A stretch of DNA of 9,200 nt from a virus. Taxonomy: Duplodnaviria; Heunggongvirae; Uroviricota; Caudoviricetes. The notes beneath the pieces are model-generated. The model ran no database searches and was not told the DNA's origin. It worked only from the letters and a program-made list of their open reading frames with translations. Positions 1,158 through 9,200 of the stretch are shown piece by piece. How positions within the stretch are numbered: the first letter of the stretch is position 1; each line of letters begins with the position of its first letter. The position numbers were made by a program, and so were the translations under genes. The stretch spans positions 1 to 9,200 of the IMG/VR virus record IMGVR_UViG_2850808358_000007; one strand, 5' to 3'.

Positions 1158-1221
1158 TATTAGCTCCTTCTGATGCCATTCTATTTCAGGAAGGAGTGTC
1201 CGTTAAACTCAGGCTACCTCA

Positions 1222-2175
1222 GTCGGCATGGTCTGCACGGCCAGCGATGCGGATGCGGAAACCTTTCCCCTCAATAAACCTGTGCTGATTACCAATGTGC
1301 AGAGCGCAATTGCAAAGGCCGGTAAAAAAGGCACGCTGGCGGCGTCGCTGCAGGCCATCGCCGACCAGTCAAAACCGGTCACCGTTGTTGTGCGCGTGGA
1401 AGACGGCACCGGCGACGACGAGGAAACGAAACTTGCGCAGACCGTTTCCAATATCATCGGCACCACCGACGAAAACGGTCAGTACACCGGACTGAAAGCC
1501 CTGCTGGCGGCGGAGTCAGTAACCGGTGTTAAACCGCGTATTCTCGGCGTGCCGGGACTGGACACCAAAGAGGTGGCTGTTGCACTGGCATCAGTCTGTC
1601 AGAAGCTGCGCGCTTTCGGGTATATCAGCGCATGGGGCTGTAAGACCATTTCCGAGGTGAAAGCCTACCGCCAGAATTTCAGCCAGCGTGAGCTGATGGT
1701 CATCTGGCCGGATTTCCTCGCATGGGATACGGTCACCAGTACCACCGCCACCGCGTATGCCACCGCCCGTGCGCTGGGTCTGCGTGCTAAAATCGACCAG
1801 GAGCAGGGCTGGCATAAAACGTTGTCCAACGTCGGGGTAAATGGTGTTACCGGCATCAGCGCATCTGTATTCTGGGATTTGCAGGAGTCCGGTACCGATG
1901 CTGACCTGCTTAACGAGTCAGGCGTCACTACGCTGATTCGCGACATCGTTGACGGCATCAATGCCAAATTTCGTGAGCTGAAAACAAACGGCTATATCGT
2001 GGATGCGACCTGCTGGTTCAGCGAAGAATCCAACGATGCGGAAACTCTTAAGGCCGGAAAACTGTATATCGACTACGACTATACCCCGGTTCCTCCTCTT
2101 GAAAACCTGACCCTGCGCCAGCGTATTACCGATAAATACCTGGCAAATCTGGTCACCTCGGTTAACAGCAATTAA
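1222..2175 (+). pseudogene. FI: P2-like tail sheath protein FI, 5'-truncated by the IS insertion (first in-frame ATG at 1228)
   Basis: The reading frame is open from the IS junction, and the protein ([27 protein letters not shown]...[12 protein letters not shown]) matches my recollection of P2 gpFI. About 317 codons remain versus the ~396 aa I recall for P2 FI. There is no native N-terminus or ribosome-binding site, and the gene sits immediately upstream of FII as in P2. Confidence 0.8.
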
Positions 2176-2762: not shown

Positions 2763-3038
2763 ATGAACAAAGAAAATGTGATTACCCTGGACAATCCGGT
2801 CAAGCGTGGTGAGCAGGTTATCGAACAGGTCACGCTGATGAAACCCAGTGCGGGGACGCTGCGCGGTGTCAGTCTGGCTGCGGTCGCAAACTCAGAAGTC
2901 GATGCACTGATTAAGGTGCTGCCGCGCATGACGGCACCGATGCTGACCGAGCAGGAAGTCGCCGCGCTGGAACTGCCTGACCTTGTGGCGCTGGCTGGTA
3001 AGGTGGTCGGTTTTTTGTCGCCGAACTCGGTGCAGTAA
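2763..3038 (+). CDS. E: P2-like tail assembly chaperone gpE
   Basis: 91-aa ORF, the length I recall for P2 gpE, with the slippery heptamer T_TTT_TTG near its 3' end. Confidence 0.85.
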   Translation: MNKENVITLDNPVKRGEQVIEQVTLMKPSAGTLRGVSLAAVANSEVDALIKVLPRMTAPMLTEQEVAALELPDLVALAGKVVGFLSPNSVQ

Positions 3039-3190
3039 CGTTCCCGAAAAATCTGTCGGTCGATGACCTGATGGCGGATGTGGCAGTGATATTTCACTGG
3101 CCGCCATCAGAACTGTATCCCATGAGCCTGACCGAACTCATCACATGGCGCGAAAAGGCGCTCCGGCGAAGCGGAAACACAAATGAGTAA
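2763..3190 (+). CDS. E': gpE+E' transframe tail chaperone (predicted -1 frameshift at 3011-3017)
   Basis: T_TTT_TTG at 3011-3017 is in the E zero frame (codons Gly-Phe-Leu). By hand translation the -1 frame is then open to a TAA at 3188-3190, giving ~142 aa, the length I recall for P2 E+E'. Confidence 0.65.
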
Positions 3191-5609
3191 CAATGTAAAA
3201 TTACAGGTATTGCTCAGGGCTGTTGACCAGGCATCCCGCCCGTTTAAATCCATCCGCACAGCGAGTAAGTCGCTGTCGGGGATATCCGGGAAACACAAAA
3301 ATCACTGCGCGAGCTGAACGGTCACGCATCCCGTATTGAGGGATTCCGCAAGACCAGTGCACAGCTCGCCGTGACTGGTCATGCACTTGAAAAGGCACGG
3401 CAGGAGGCCGAAGCCCTTGCCACACAGTTTAAAAACACCGAACGTCCGACCCGTGCTCAGGCGAAAGTGCTGGAATCAGCAAAGCGAGCGGCGGAGGACT
3501 TACAGGCGAAATATAACCGCCTGACGGATTCCGTTAAACGCCAGCAGCGGGAACTGGCCGCTGTGGGAATTAATACCCGCAATCTTGCACATGATGAGCA
3601 GGGACTGAAAAACCGTATCAGTGAAACCACCGCACAGCTTAACCGACAACGTGACGCGCTGGCGCGTGTCAGTGCGCAACAGGCAAAACTTAACGCAGTA
3701 AAACAGCGTTATCAGGCAGGCAAGGAACTGGCCGGAAATATGGCCTCAGTGGGCGCTGCCGGTGTGGGGATTGCTGCTGCGGGAACAATGGCCGGAGTTA
3801 AGCTACTGATGCCCGGTTATGAGTTTGCGCAGAAAAACTCAGAATTGCAGGCCGTGCTCGGAGTGGCAAAAGACTCTGCCGAAATGGCTGCACTACGCAA
3901 GCAGGCGCGCCAGCTCGGCGGACGATGCAGCCGGTGCGCAGATTATCATTGCGAAAGCGGGTGGAGATGCTGCGGCTATTCAGGCGGCAACGCCGGTCAC
4001 GCTGAATATGGCACTGGCGAATCAGCGGACGATGGAAGAAAACGCGCAACTGTTGCTGGGGACTAAGGCATCCTTTCAACTGTCAAATGATGATGTCAGC
4101 CATGTGGGCGACGTGTTGTCAGCAACGATGAATAAGTCGGCGGCTGATTTTCAGGGACTCAGTGATGCACTGACTTACCTCGGTCCGGTTGCGAGGACGG
4201 CAGGTGTAAGTCTTGAGCAGGCAGCGGCCATGACAGGTGTGCTGCATGACAATAACATCAGGGGGTCAATGGCGGGTACGGGTAGTAGTGCCGTTGTCAC
4301 CCGATTACAGGCTCCGACAGGGAAAGCATGGGAAGCACTAAAAGAGCTTGGCGTTAAAACCTCGGACAAAAAGGGAAATATGCGTCCGTTGTTCACCATT
4401 CTGAAAGAGATTCAGGTCAGCTTTGATAAACACAAGCTGGGAACGTCTCAGAAGGGGGAATACCTTAAAACCATTTTTGGTGAGGAAGCCCTGAAATCAG
4501 CGAACGTTTTACTGGCAGCGGCTGCAAGCGGAAAACTGGATAAGCTGACCGCCACGCTGAAAGCCTCGGACGGTAAAACGGAAGAGCTGGTTAAAATCAT
4601 GCAGGACAACCTCGGCGGTGACTTTAAGGAGTTTCAGTCCGCTTATGAGGCGGTGGGGACTGACCTGTTTGACCAGCAGGAAGGCGCACTGCGTAATCTC
4701 ACGCAGACGGCCACAAAGTATGTGTTAAAACTCGACGGCTGGATCCAGAAAAACAAATCACTGGCGTCAACCATCGGCATCATTGTCGGTGGTGCACTGG
4801 CGCTGACTGGTGTCATCGGTGCCATTGGCCTCGTAGCCTGGCCGGTTATCACCGGCATCAATGCCATTATCGCGGCAGCAGGCGCAATGGGGGCAATCTT
4901 CACGACGGTTGGCAGTGCTGTTATGACGGCCATCGGGGCGATTAGCTGGCCGGTTGTGGCCGTGGTGGCTGCAATTGTCGCCGGGGCGTTGCTTATCCGT
5001 AAATACTGGGAGCCTGTCAGCGCATTCTTTGGCGGTGTGGTGGAAGGGCTGAAAGCGGCATTTGCGCCGGTGGGGGAACTGTTCGCGCCACTTAAGCCGG
5101 TGTTTGACTGGCTGGGTGAAAAGTTACAGGCCGCGTGGCAGTGGTTTAAAAACCTGATTGCCCCCGTCAAAGCCACCCAGGACACCCTGAACCGTTGCCG
5201 TGATACGGGCGTCATGTTCGGGCAGGCACTGGCTGACGCGCTGATGCTGCCGCTTAATGCGTTCAACAAACTGCGCAGCGGCATTGACTGGGTACTGGAA
5301 AAACTCGGTGTTATCAACAAAGAGTCAGACACACTTGACCAGACCGCCGCCAGAACTCATGCCGCCACGTATGGCAACGGTGGTTATATTCCGGCGACCA
5401 GCTCTTATGCAGGCTATCAGGCTTATCAGCCGGTCACGGTACCGGCTGGTCGCTCTTATGTGGACCAGAGTAAAAACGAATATCACATCAGCCTGACGGG
5501 TGGTACTGCGCCGGGGACACAGCTTGACCGCCAGTTACAGGATGCGCTCGAAAAATACGAGCGGGATAAACGTGCGCGCGCCCGTGCCAGCATGATGCAT
5601 GACGGTTAA
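3183..5609 (+). pseudogene. T: P2-like tail tape measure protein gpT, disrupted by two reading-frame changes
   Basis: Three colinear frame segments: ATG at 3183 (MSNNVKLQVLLRAVDQ...) stops at 3315-3317; a second frame is open from 3269 to 4066; a third runs 3819-5609. All read as continuous tape-measure-like sequence (coiled-coil N-terminus, Gly/Ala/Ile-rich hydrophobic segment, C-terminus ...YERDKRARARASMMHDG). The 2427-nt span is close to the 815 codons I recall for P2 gpT. Confidence 0.7.
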
Positions 5610-5623
5610 GGAGGTGACGAAAA

Positions 5624-6103
5624 GTGATGCTCGCGTTAGGTATGTTTGTTTTTATGCGCCAGACGCTGCCACACCAGACCATGCAGCGTGAATCAGATTA
5701 TCGCTGGCCGTCAAATTCCCGTATCGGTAAACGGGATGCCTACCAGTTTCTCGGTGTGGGTGAGGAAAACATGACGCTTGCCGGCGTGCTTTATCCCGAA
5801 CTGACCGGCGGGAAGCTGACGATGACCACGCTCAGGCTGATGGCAGAGGAAGGCCGGGCGTGGCCGTTGCTGGATGGCACTGGCATGATTTACGGCATGT
5901 ATATCGTCAGCAAGGTGAGTGAAACAGGGAGTATTTTCTTTGCAGACGGCACACCCCGGAAAATTGATTTTACGCTGTCACTCACCCGCGTTGATGAATC
6001 ACTGGCCGCGCTTTATGGCGATATCGGTAAACAGGCGGAATCGCTCATCGGTAAGGCTGGCAGTATGGCGACCAGATTCACGGGTATGACGGGGGCGGGA
6101 TAA
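5624..6103 (+). CDS. U: P2-like tail protein gpU
   Basis: 159-aa ORF, the length I recall for P2 gpU, starting at GTG 5624 followed by ATG 5627. GGAGGT at 5610-5615 is 8 nt upstream. Its stop overlaps the D start (TAATG). Confidence 0.85.
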   Translation: MMLALGMFVFMRQTLPHQTMQRESDYRWPSNSRIGKRDAYQFLGVGEENMTLAGVLYPELTGGKLTMTTLRLMAEEGRAWPLLDGTGMIYGMYIVSKVSETGSIFFADGTPRKIDFTLSLTRVDESLAALYGDIGKQAESLIGKAGSMATRFTGMTGAG

Positions 6104-7266
6104 TGCTGGATGCGCTGACATTTGATGCAGGCAGTACGCTGACGCCGGATTACATGCTGATGCTCGACAGCAGGGATATTACCGGCAATATCAGCGACCG
6201 TCTGATGAGCATGACCCTGACGGATAACCGGGGCTTTGAGGCTGACCAGCTTGATATTGAACTGAACGACGCCGACGGGCAGGTAGGGCTACCGGTTCGT
6301 GGCGCTGTCCTGACGGTGTATATCGGCTGGAAAGGTTTTGCCCTGGTATGCAAAGGGAAATTTACCGTTGATGAGGTTGAACACCGGGGCGCACCGGATG
6401 TGGTCACCATCCGCGCCCGGAGTGCAGATTTTCGCGGGACGCTCAATTCCCGCCGTGAAGGCTCCTGGCATGACACCACGCTCGGTGCGATTGTTGAGGC
6501 GATAGCCTCCCGTAACAGGCTGGAAGCCAGTGTCGCGCCGTCACTGGCAGGAATTAAAATCCCGCACATCGACCAGTCGCAGGAGTCTGATGCGAAATTC
6601 CTGACCCGCCTTGCTGAACGCAACGGCGGTGAGGTGTCGGTAAAAATGGGAAAACTGTTGTTTCTCAAAGCGGGGCAGGGGGTGACGGCCAGCGGTAAAA
6701 AAATCCCGCAGATTACCATCACCCGCAGCGACGGCGACCGTCATCATTTTGCGATTGCTGACCGTGGAGCTTACACCGGCGTAACGGCAAAGTGGTTACA
6801 CACCAAAGACCCGAAGCCGCAAAAGCAGAAGGTAAAACTGAAACGCAAAAAGAAAGAAAAACACCTGCGCGCACTGGAGCACCCGAAAGCGAAACCGGTC
6901 ACGCAGAAGAAAGCGCCAAAAGTACCGGAAGCGCGCGAAGGTGAATACATGGCCGGTGAAGCTGACAACGTTTTTGCCCTGACTACGGTATATGCCACGA
7001 AAGCACAGGCCATGCGCGCCGCTCAGGCGAAGTGGGATAAACTGCAACGGGGCGTTGCGGAGTTCTCCATCAGCCTTGCCACTGGTCGTGCTGATATTTA
7101 CACGGAAACACCGGTCAGAGTGTCAGGCTTTAAGCGCGTCATAGACGAGCAGGACTGGACAATCACTAAGGTGACACATTTTCTGAATAATAGCGGCTTC
7201 ACGACGTCCTTGGAGCTTGAGGTCAGGCTTTCTGATGTGGAGTACGAAACAGAAGATGATGAGTAA
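6103..7266 (+). CDS. D: P2-like tail protein gpD
   Basis: 387-aa ORF, the length I recall for P2 gpD. Start is translationally coupled to the U stop, and position is syntenic with P2. It contains an internal Lys-rich linker. Confidence 0.88.
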   Translation: MLDALTFDAGSTLTPDYMLMLDSRDITGNISDRLMSMTLTDNRGFEADQLDIELNDADGQVGLPVRGAVLTVYIGWKGFALVCKGKFTVDEVEHRGAPDVVTIRARSADFRGTLNSRREGSWHDTTLGAIVEAIASRNRLEASVAPSLAGIKIPHIDQSQESDAKFLTRLAERNGGEVSVKMGKLLFLKAGQGVTASGKKIPQITITRSDGDRHHFAIADRGAYTGVTAKWLHTKDPKPQKQKVKLKRKKKEKHLRALEHPKAKPVTQKKAPKVPEAREGEYMAGEADNVFALTTVYATKAQAMRAAQAKWDKLQRGVAEFSISLATGRADIYTETPVRVSGFKRVIDEQDWTITKVTHFLNNSGFTTSLELEVRLSDVEYETEDDE

Positions 7267-7347: not shown

Positions 7348-7566
7348 ATGTTTCATTGTCCTTTATGCCAGCATGCCGCACATGCGCGTACAAGCCGCTA
7401 TATCACTGACACGACAAAAGAGCGTTATCACCAGTGTCAGAACGTGAATTGCAGCGCCACGTTCATCACTTATGAGTCGGTACAGCGATACATCGTGAAG
7501 CCGGGAGAAGTCCACGCCGTAAGACCGCACCCGTTGCCGTCAGGGCAGCAAATTATGTGGATGTAA
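7348..7566 (+). CDS. ogr: Ogr, zinc-finger late gene transcription activator
   Basis: 72-aa product MFHCPLCQHAAHARTSRYITDTTKERYHQCQNVNCSATF... with Cys at 4, 7, 30 and 35 (a Cys4 zinc finger), matching my recollection of P2 Ogr and E. coli K-12 OgrK. GAGG lies ~8 nt upstream of this ATG. The tracked ORF starts further upstream at 7285, but that extension has no ribosome-binding site support. Confidence 0.9.
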   Translation: MFHCPLCQHAAHARTSRYITDTTKERYHQCQNVNCSATFITYESVQRYIVKPGEVHAVRPHPLPSGQQIMWM

Positions 7567-7667: not shown

Positions 7668-7694
7668 AAAAAATAAGCCCGTGTAAGGGAGATT
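7668..7694 (+). other. Putative P2 attachment-site core (attR) marking the prophage/host boundary
   Basis: AAAAAATAAGCCCGTGTAAGGGAGATT matches my recollection of the 27-bp P2 att core. It lies immediately after ogr and its terminator, where attP sits in the P2 genome, and before host yegQ. Recollection only, unverified. Confidence 0.55.
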
Positions 7695-7838
7695 ACACAG
7701 GCTAAGGAGGTGGTTCCTGGTACAGCTAGCATTTTATGGGTTATGTTTTTCAGCGAAACGGATGATAACCTTAATAAATGCAGCTGTATGTGATCGGTTT
7801 CTAAGAATTTTCCATCCGGGAAAAATAATCGAAATTAA

Positions 7839-9200
7839 TCACTTACCGTGGGGGTTACGCGTGGTTTCCCCGGAGAAATTACGCATTAGCAGCGCGTAAT
7901 TTAGCTCAAGATCCTGCGGGACCGGGAGCCACACAGTATAACCATCGCCTGGTGCGACCGGCATAGCTTCGCCTTTGGCGTTTTCCATGTGCTCAAGGGT
8001 AAAGTTAATGTTGCCTTGCGGCGTCATCAGCTCAAGACTGTCGCCAACGGAGAATTTATTTTTCACCGCTACCGCTGCGAGGTCCCCCTTGCGCTCACCG
8101 GTAAACTCACCAACAAACTGCTGGCGGTCAGAAACTGAATAACCGTATTCGTAGTTCTGATAATCGTCGTGAGTATGACGACGCAGGAAACCTTCGGTAT
8201 AGCCACGATGCGCCAGACCTTCCAGAGTTTCCAGCAGGCTGGTATCGAACGGTTTTCCCGCAGCGGCGTCATCGATAGCTTTGCGGTAAACCTGTGCGGT
8301 GCGTGCGCAATAGTAGAAAGATTTGGTACGACCTTCGATTTTCAGCGAATGCACGCCCATTTTGGTCAGGCGTTCTACATGGGCGATGGCGCGCAGATCT
8401 TTCGAGTTCATGATGTAAGTGCCGTGCTCATCTTCAAACGCGGTCATATACTCGCCAGGACGCTGGGCCTCTTCGATCATAAACACTTTGTCGGTTGGCG
8501 CGCCGATACCCAGCGTCGGCTCAACATTTTGCACCGGAATCGGCTCGTACTTGTGTACGATGTTGCCAACGTCATCTTCTTTCCCTTCCTGGACGTTGTA
8601 CTCCCAGCGGCAGGCGTTGGTGCAGGTACCCTGGTTCGGATCGCGCTTGTTGATATAGCCAGAGAGCAGGCAGCGACCGGAGTAGGCCATGCACAGTGCG
8701 CCGTGAACGAAGATCTCGATCTCCATATCCGGCACCTGATTGCGGATCTCTTCAATCTCTTCAAGCGACAGCTCGCGAGAGAGGATCACGCGGGTCAGGC
8801 CCATTTGCTGCCAGAATTTCACCGTCGCCCAGTTTACGGCGTTAGCCTGCACCGAGAGGTGGATCGGCATTTCAGGGAAGTGCTCACGCACCAGCATAAT
8901 CAGCCCTGGATCGGACATAATCAGCGCATCCGGCCCCATTTCCACCACCGGTTTCAGGTCACAGATAAAGGTTTTCAGCTTGGCGTTGTGCGGTGCAATG
9001 TTGACCACGACATAAAACTTTTTCCCCAGCGCGTGGGCTTCATTGATGCCGAGCTGAAGATTTTCGTGGTTGAATTCGTTGTTGCGCACACGTAGGGAGT
9101 AACGCGGCTGGCCCGCATAAACAGCATCTGCGCCATAAGCGAAAGCGTAACGCATATTTTTCAGCGTTCCCGCCGGGGAAAGGAGTTCCGGTTTAAACAT
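7839..9200 (-). CDS. yegQ: Peptidase U32 family protein YegQ (TrhP, linked to tRNA U34 hydroxylation)
   Basis: 453-aa ORF, MFKPELLSPAGTLKNMRYAFAYGADAVYAGQPRYSLRVRNNEFNHENL..., matching the length and sequence I recall for E. coli YegQ. The start codon is at the last base of the window. A convergent ogrK lies next to yegQ in E. coli K-12. Confidence 0.9.
   Translation of the reverse strand: MFKPELLSPAGTLKNMRYAFAYGADAVYAGQPRYSLRVRNNEFNHENLQLGINEAHALGKKFYVVVNIAPHNAKLKTFICDLKPVVEMGPDALIMSDPGLIMLVREHFPEMPIHLSVQANAVNWATVKFWQQMGLTRVILSRELSLEEIEEIRNQVPDMEIEIFVHGALCMAYSGRCLLSGYINKRDPNQGTCTNACRWEYNVQEGKEDDVGNIVHKYEPIPVQNVEPTLGIGAPTDKVFMIEEAQRPGEYMTAFEDEHGTYIMNSKDLRAIAHVERLTKMGVHSLKIEGRTKSFYYCARTAQVYRKAIDDAAAGKPFDTSLLETLEGLAHRGYTEGFLRRHTHDDYQNYEYGYSVSDRQQFVGEFTGERKGDLAAVAVKNKFSVGDSLELMTPQGNINFTLEHMENAKGEAMPVAPGDGYTVWLPVPQDLELNYALLMRNFSGETTRNPHGK

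Follow-up and report, generated by a model that had tools for sequence, protein, structure and literature searches.

A P2-like prophage remnant in an E. coli/Shigella-type chromosome in which a single IS600 copy probably bridges both breaks of a ~25–26 kb interior deletion

In Escherichia coli K-12 the chromosomal interval between cyaR/yegQ and yegR carries a cryptic P2 remnant, PR-X, which consists of ogrK and the pseudogene yegZ; only about 0.6 kb remains there (ogr and a fragment of D), and its left edge carries no insertion sequence (IS). Elements of the IS3 family transpose by a copy-out-paste-in pathway with a circular intermediate, for which adjacent deletions are less typical, such deletions being better documented in other IS families. 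One member of this family, IS600 (IS3 group), is annotated in E. coli and Shigella as a 1264-bp element with TG...CA ends, the reading frames orfA and orfB, a −1 frameshift site of the A7G type and an rve DDE domain, and ordinary insertions of it carry a 3-bp target duplication. IS-mediated gene loss has been described in Shigella and EIEC, where IS600 is among the IS that have expanded (Hawkey et al., 2020, PMC7373316). In P2-like prophages an accessory hotspot has been described between gpA and gpQ, at old/tin (Rousset et al., 2022, PMC9122126).

The stretch of DNA analyzed here (the window) is 9,200 nucleotides long. In a first-pass annotation, an IS3-family element was reported to have inserted into the 5' end of the tail sheath gene FI of a P2-like prophage, separating everything to its left from the tail operon, and any cargo at the Z/fun hotspot was expected immediately left of the window, beyond the IS. 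In this study, an exact match of the protein from the truncated FI reading frame placed the window in GenBank record CP026877.1 (GCA_002950035.1), a 5.13-Mb chromosome, and the window was analyzed together with 10 kb on each side of it in this record (this region is referred to as L001, in which a coordinate equals the window position plus 8773). The results indicate that a P2-like prophage at the cyaR/yegQ–yegR site has very probably lost some 25–26 kb of its interior and that one intact IS600 bridges both breaks.

The IS3-family element is specifically IS600, which occupies positions 1–1221 of the window on the minus strand. This name is based on RefSeq-annotated copies in matching E. coli records, which carry the label ‘IS3-like element IS600 family transposase’ and match the window copy at 99% identity at least (99.0–99.4% among the matches listed, with 4760 matching E. 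coli records in total). The complete copy is 1264 bp in length (L001 8731–9994) and has TG...CA ends; the window contains positions 1–1221 of the element, and the last 43 bp of the latter, including the tip of IRR, fall just outside on the left (L001 8731–8773). The terminal inverted repeats are imperfect (IRL TGAGGTAGCCTGAG... and IRR TGAGGTGTACTGGC...). The terminus that the first-pass annotation had placed at about 1221 is exact at this position, as similarity to a plasmid copy of IS600 (L005) ceases after ...GGCTACCTCA and P2-like homology starts at 1222. Some IS600 matches seemingly reached window positions 1237–1251; these were rejected as chance similarity in unrelated flanks.

On the minus strand, orfA (855–1157) encodes 100 amino acids with an HTH_Tnp_1 domain and aligns to positions 1–86 of the NCBIfam IS3 transposase profile NF033516 (transpos_IS3), and the orfB frame (1–907), which encodes the rve DDE transposase, is open in the −1 frame from an A7G slippery run at 899–907 to a stop codon at 1–3 and scores 351.4 bits over profile positions 86–369, where the curated cut-off is 160 bits. 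The two frames overlap, and a programmed −1 frameshift is predicted at A7G; RefSeq annotates the same arrangement on the equivalent copy. The left end of the element (1158–1221, minus strand) comprises IRL and the 5' leader; a promoter-like site there (1206 to 1178) faces into the element. Since the reading frames and the frameshift site are intact, the element could be active, as far as can be judged from its sequence. Assignment to the IS3 family thus relies on the profile score, the frameshifted reading frames, a length within ~1.2–1.5 kb, the TG...CA ends and the near-identity to annotated copies. One feature of ordinary IS600 insertions is absent, however: a clean target duplication of 3 bp (GTA/GTA) borders the plasmid copy L005, whereas the window copy is flanked by TAC and GTC, a lack that is attributed to its position at a deletion or recombination junction. 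A target duplication is a property of the insertion event and has no bearing on family membership.

The right-hand junction of the IS, at 1221/1222, joins the IS600 terminus to nucleotide 82 of P2 FI and would represent the right edge of the ~25–26 kb prophage deletion. In all 15 phage records listed, P2-like homology begins at window position 1222 (query base 73 of window:1150–2800), and global alignment with P2 FI (L004 2420–3610) identifies this base as the first of codon 28. The ATG at 1228 corresponds to the internal Met30 of FI, and no Shine–Dalgarno-like sequence was found upstream of it. Furthermore, a scan of positions 900–2300 revealed no promoter-like site on the plus strand, including read-out from the IS into the truncated gene ('FI); the sole promoter-like site near the junction points into IS600, toward orfA. 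The first-pass annotation had described a reading frame continuing from 1222 in the absence of a native start codon or ribosome-binding site and had regarded the gene as inactivated. This is confirmed: FI is inactivated by the loss of codons 1–27, the start codon, the ribosome-binding site and the promoter.

What remains of FI is a sheath pseudogene comprising codons 28–396 (1222–2175, plus strand), in which the Pfam domains Gp18_domIII_N, Phage_sheath_1 and Phage_sheath_1C are recognized. It carries a second lesion, namely an in-frame deletion of 156 bp (52 codons, FI nucleotides 788–943) located between window positions 1927 and 1928. The deleted segment is flanked by 14-bp direct repeats, CAACGCTGATTCGC, a pattern typical of slipped-strand or short-homology deletion. 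The IS600/FI junction recurs in independent short-read assemblies, L002 (ERR200316, with the contig in four samples) and L003 (SRR1811640), and both contigs begin 27 bp inside the IS end. An exact search for this junction in the GTDB species-representative genomes gave no match.

The other end of the IS lies at L001 8731, and inspection of its outer flank contradicts the reading of a plain insertion into FI. The arrangement is ...GATAATAC–IS–GTCGGCATG..., with TAC on the left, GTC on the right and no target-site duplication; on its far side the IS borders the 3' end of the prophage gene int, which on the P2 map lies ~25 kb from FI. The left flank is 94.9% identical to the 3' end of P2 int with attP and 100% identical to Peduovirus P24C9 over 267 nt, and its minus-strand translation, IITLQRILGHTRIEQTMVYAHFAPEYLQDAISLNPLRGGTEAESVHTVSTVE followed by a stop codon, reproduces P2 Int residues 286–337 exactly, i.e. 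the C-terminal 52 residues. Proceeding leftwards from IS600, 161 nt of int (int'), a 27-nt att core (attL) and the host genes yegR, yegS, gatR and the gat operon follow in order. The statement that everything to the left is separated from the tail operon by the IS is therefore to be corrected, as the rest of the prophage is absent and the left side consists of these 161 nt, the att core and host genes of the yegR, yegS and gat loci. A set of 5,426 complete E. coli genomes contained neither the FI-side nor the int-side junction, and none of these genomes has IS600 at either site.

The boundaries of the element are defined by direct repeats of the att core, with int' beside attL and ogr beside attR. 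The attL core (L001 8464–8490) is identical over 27 nt to the attR core (L001 16441–16467), which is located at window positions 7668–7694 on the plus strand (AAAAAATAAGCCCGTGTAAGGGAGATT) and is recognized from the P2 attP annotation. The gene for the small RNA CyaR (RyeE) lies at 7671–7756 on the minus strand (Rfam RF00112, 100.7 bits, and K-12 annotation); its 3' end overlaps the att core, so integration of the P2 type regenerates the 3' end of the sRNA gene. The right-hand host flank is formed by yegQ/trhP, of the U32 peptidase family (7839–9200, minus strand; annotation and K-12 comparison). The locus spans about 8.0 kb from att core to att core, made up of 1.26 kb of IS600 and 6.7 kb of phage DNA. 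The host-side arm of attL (L001 8405–8463) resembles the P arm of the phage, as present at attR, with ~78% similarity, and K-12 has the same host-side sequence beside yegR (L008 5813–5989). This arm may have been left by an earlier lysogeny of the P2 type at the site.

The size of the loss was estimated from intact relatives. The prophage of E. coli DA33137 (L007; NZ_CP029579.1 4494400–4534400) has the same yegR–attL–int junction as L001, and the positions equivalent to the two breakpoints are 26,441 bp apart in it (L007 1515 and 27957). In the coordinates of P24C9, the missing part amounts to 25,260 of 32,150 bp. The left break is inside int, after nucleotide 853, which leaves only the last 161 nt of the gene (residues 286–337 and the stop codon), and the right break precedes FI codon 28. 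The segment between them contains int codons 1–285, C, cox, B, A, the old/tin hotspot and cos. It also takes in the genes for capsid, lysis, baseplate and fibres as well as the Z/fun hotspot, and it ends with the promoter of the F operon and FI codons 1–27. The intact DA33137 prophage is bordered by yegR on the left and by pflB–focA on the right, implying that the chromosome was rearranged between two P2 attachment sites or two prophages.

Intact relatives (L009–L029) differ greatly in the interval from the tail-fibre-assembly gene to FI. Products encoded there match the families SduA_C (Shedu), SIR2_2 with DUF6602, AbiGi, Peptidase_U49, NUDIX with HAD, DUF5677 and resolvase of the invertase type, and others have no Pfam match. 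The DA33137 prophage has a gene for a Shedu nuclease upstream of FI, and its gpA–gpQ hotspot is occupied by a gene for an ATP-dependent nuclease. The general idea of the first-pass annotation, that an accessory hotspot lies just upstream of FI, is therefore sound; its application to this locus is not, since both accessory hotspots fall inside the deletion and no cargo remains to the left of the window.

The surviving phage genes run 'FI–FII–E–T–U–D–ogr–attR, the order of the Peduovirus tail module, with high identity to P2. All of them lie on the plus strand. Intact genes are FII for the tail tube (2188–2706), whose protein is identical to a very widespread allele; the gene for the tail assembly chaperone gpE (2763–3038; PF10109); those for gpU (5624–6103; PF06995) and gpD (6103–7266), the latter protein being identical in many intact P2-like prophages; and the late-gene activator gene ogr (7348–7566; 72 amino acids), in a region that is 98.3% identical to the ogrK region of K-12. 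The tape-measure gene T (3183–5609) is a pseudogene. A frameshifting deletion of 20 bp near 3914, flanked by CTCGGCG repeats, also occurs in L002 and L003, which are short-read assemblies. A second difference, −1 in a G5 run at 3278, is confined to CP026877.1 and could be real or could be a homopolymer error of long-read sequencing.

Look-ups of exact proteins place these genes among their relatives. The broken T fragment was found in the same lineage only, and the gpFII and gpD proteins were found elsewhere in intact prophages only. Intact relatives with an identical gpD have an FI of 396 amino acids and a T of 815 amino acids and carry cargo genes in the interval from the fibre-assembly gene to FI, and the closest of the intact relatives, L020, shows 98.3–98.75% nucleotide identity. 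Because gpD and gpFII are identical to alleles in intact prophages, the sequences suggest to us that the decay is evolutionarily recent. A complete gene set is lacking, as the replication, capsid, lysis and baseplate genes are missing and 6.7 kb of phage DNA is left where an intact prophage has about 32–33 kb; the locus is a remnant, not a functional prophage. Whichever way the deletion arose, it is predicted to be a non-excisable, non-inducible fragment with promoterless tail genes, in which only ogr would retain its own promoter and terminator.

How the two breaks came to share one IS can be considered from the state of the junctions. The position of IS600 at a deletion junction is indicated by a single intact IS, by the absence of a duplication and by flanks ~25 kb apart on the prophage map. 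A simple insertion of IS600 into FI of an otherwise complete prophage would account for the IS end abutting FI in frame at codon 28, and the window alone holds nothing that contradicts it; however, int' (161 nt), attL and yegR follow directly past the IS, no 5' end of FI is present there and the flanking triplets differ (TAC versus GTC), so this explanation is very improbable. The possibility was also considered that the assembly has merged separate IS600 copies in int and FI into one and that the interior of the prophage is still present. The linkage of both IS ends is seen in one long assembly, CP026877.1, and the short-read contigs end inside the IS, which means that they confirm the FI-side junction alone; the homopolymer difference at 3278 between this record and the short-read contigs would also fit an artefact. 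Long reads normally span a 1.26-kb repeat, however, both junctions lie on one IS in the finished chromosome, and the lesions in FI and T that are common to the short-read assemblies show an element already in decay. An artefact of this kind is accordingly hardly credible. The insertion of an IS at the scar of a pre-existing deletion was rejected, as it would leave a 3-bp duplication.

Two routes lead to a true deletion with one IS600 at its scar. In the favoured and most likely one, a P2-like prophage would have integrated at the cyaR/yegQ–yegR attachment site, two copies of IS600 in the same orientation would then have inserted into int and FI, respectively, and homologous recombination between these copies would have removed the interval and left a single IS. 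A lone IS with each flank derived from a different target site would lack a duplication for this reason. The recombination route is supported by the IS-rich nature of the source region, which has two further transposase genes within 21 kb. Alternatively, a single IS600 inserted in int or in FI may have generated an adjacent deletion by means of its transposase, through one-ended or intramolecular transposition to a site ~25 kb away. The outcome would be the same (one intact IS, no target-site duplication and flanks from distant prophage sites), and the element, with its reading frames and frameshift site intact, could be active. Against this route, the copy-out circular intermediate of the IS3 family makes it less typical, and the many IS600 copies per genome make recombination between copies the simpler process. 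This property of copy-out-paste-in transposition is an argument for the recombination route, though not a proof, and we consider the adjacent deletion possible but doubtful. Among the 5,426 complete E. coli genomes, none showed an intermediate state that would separate the two routes. A broader proposal, that the 25-kb loss was an adjacent deletion by the IS600 transposase or that the ogr/tail fragment has been kept through a putative action of Ogr, for example in cross-talk with a P4-like satellite or an incoming P2-like phage, appears unlikely. If the adjacent deletion were true, the locus would provide a natural example for a copy-out-paste-in element of the IS3 family.

The locus is a case of ordinary IS-mediated prophage decay, in which a common element, IS600, and an ordinary P2-like Peduovirus take part in a well-known process. 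Its value for downstream work is that of a correction: no defence or cargo genes are hidden left of the window, and its tail genes are dead remains that belong to no inducible prophage. In addition, it shows at base resolution how prophages are eroded by expanding IS in IS-rich genomes of the E. coli/Shigella type.

In comparison with known systems, the IS itself agrees with annotated IS600 in every respect listed above except for the target duplication. The deletion resembles the IS-mediated losses of Shigella and EIEC (Hawkey et al., 2020, PMC7373316) in having a single IS at the deletion scar within a region that contains multiple IS. An IS transposase gene is present in the gatB/gatC region (L001 732–1481), where gatC is split into ORFs of 90 and 310 amino acids, and an element of the IS4 type lies between yegP and baeR (L001 18515–19843). 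These two additional IS genes are consistent with an IS-expanded, Shigella-like genome, and the IS content suggests that CP026877.1 belongs to Shigella or to an EIEC-type E. coli.

Intact Peduovirus genomes (P2, P24C9 and the prophages L007 and L020) share the tail module with the remnant at 97–99% nucleotide identity, as well as identical gpD and gpFII proteins and the same att core, whereas the remnant is missing ~79% of the genome, has an FI that is truncated at its 5' end and shortened by the 156-bp deletion, and has a frameshifted T. A further counterpart is PR-X of K-12, which occupies the same chromosomal site and is 98.3% identical over 651 nt at the right end (ogr, terminator, att core, cyaR and yegQ). 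In contrast to PR-X, the window remnant keeps 'FI–FII–E–T–U–D–ogr together with int' and attL and has IS600 at the break. It represents an intermediate stage of decay at a site where K-12 retains only ogrK and yegZ, being larger than PR-X and presumably younger.
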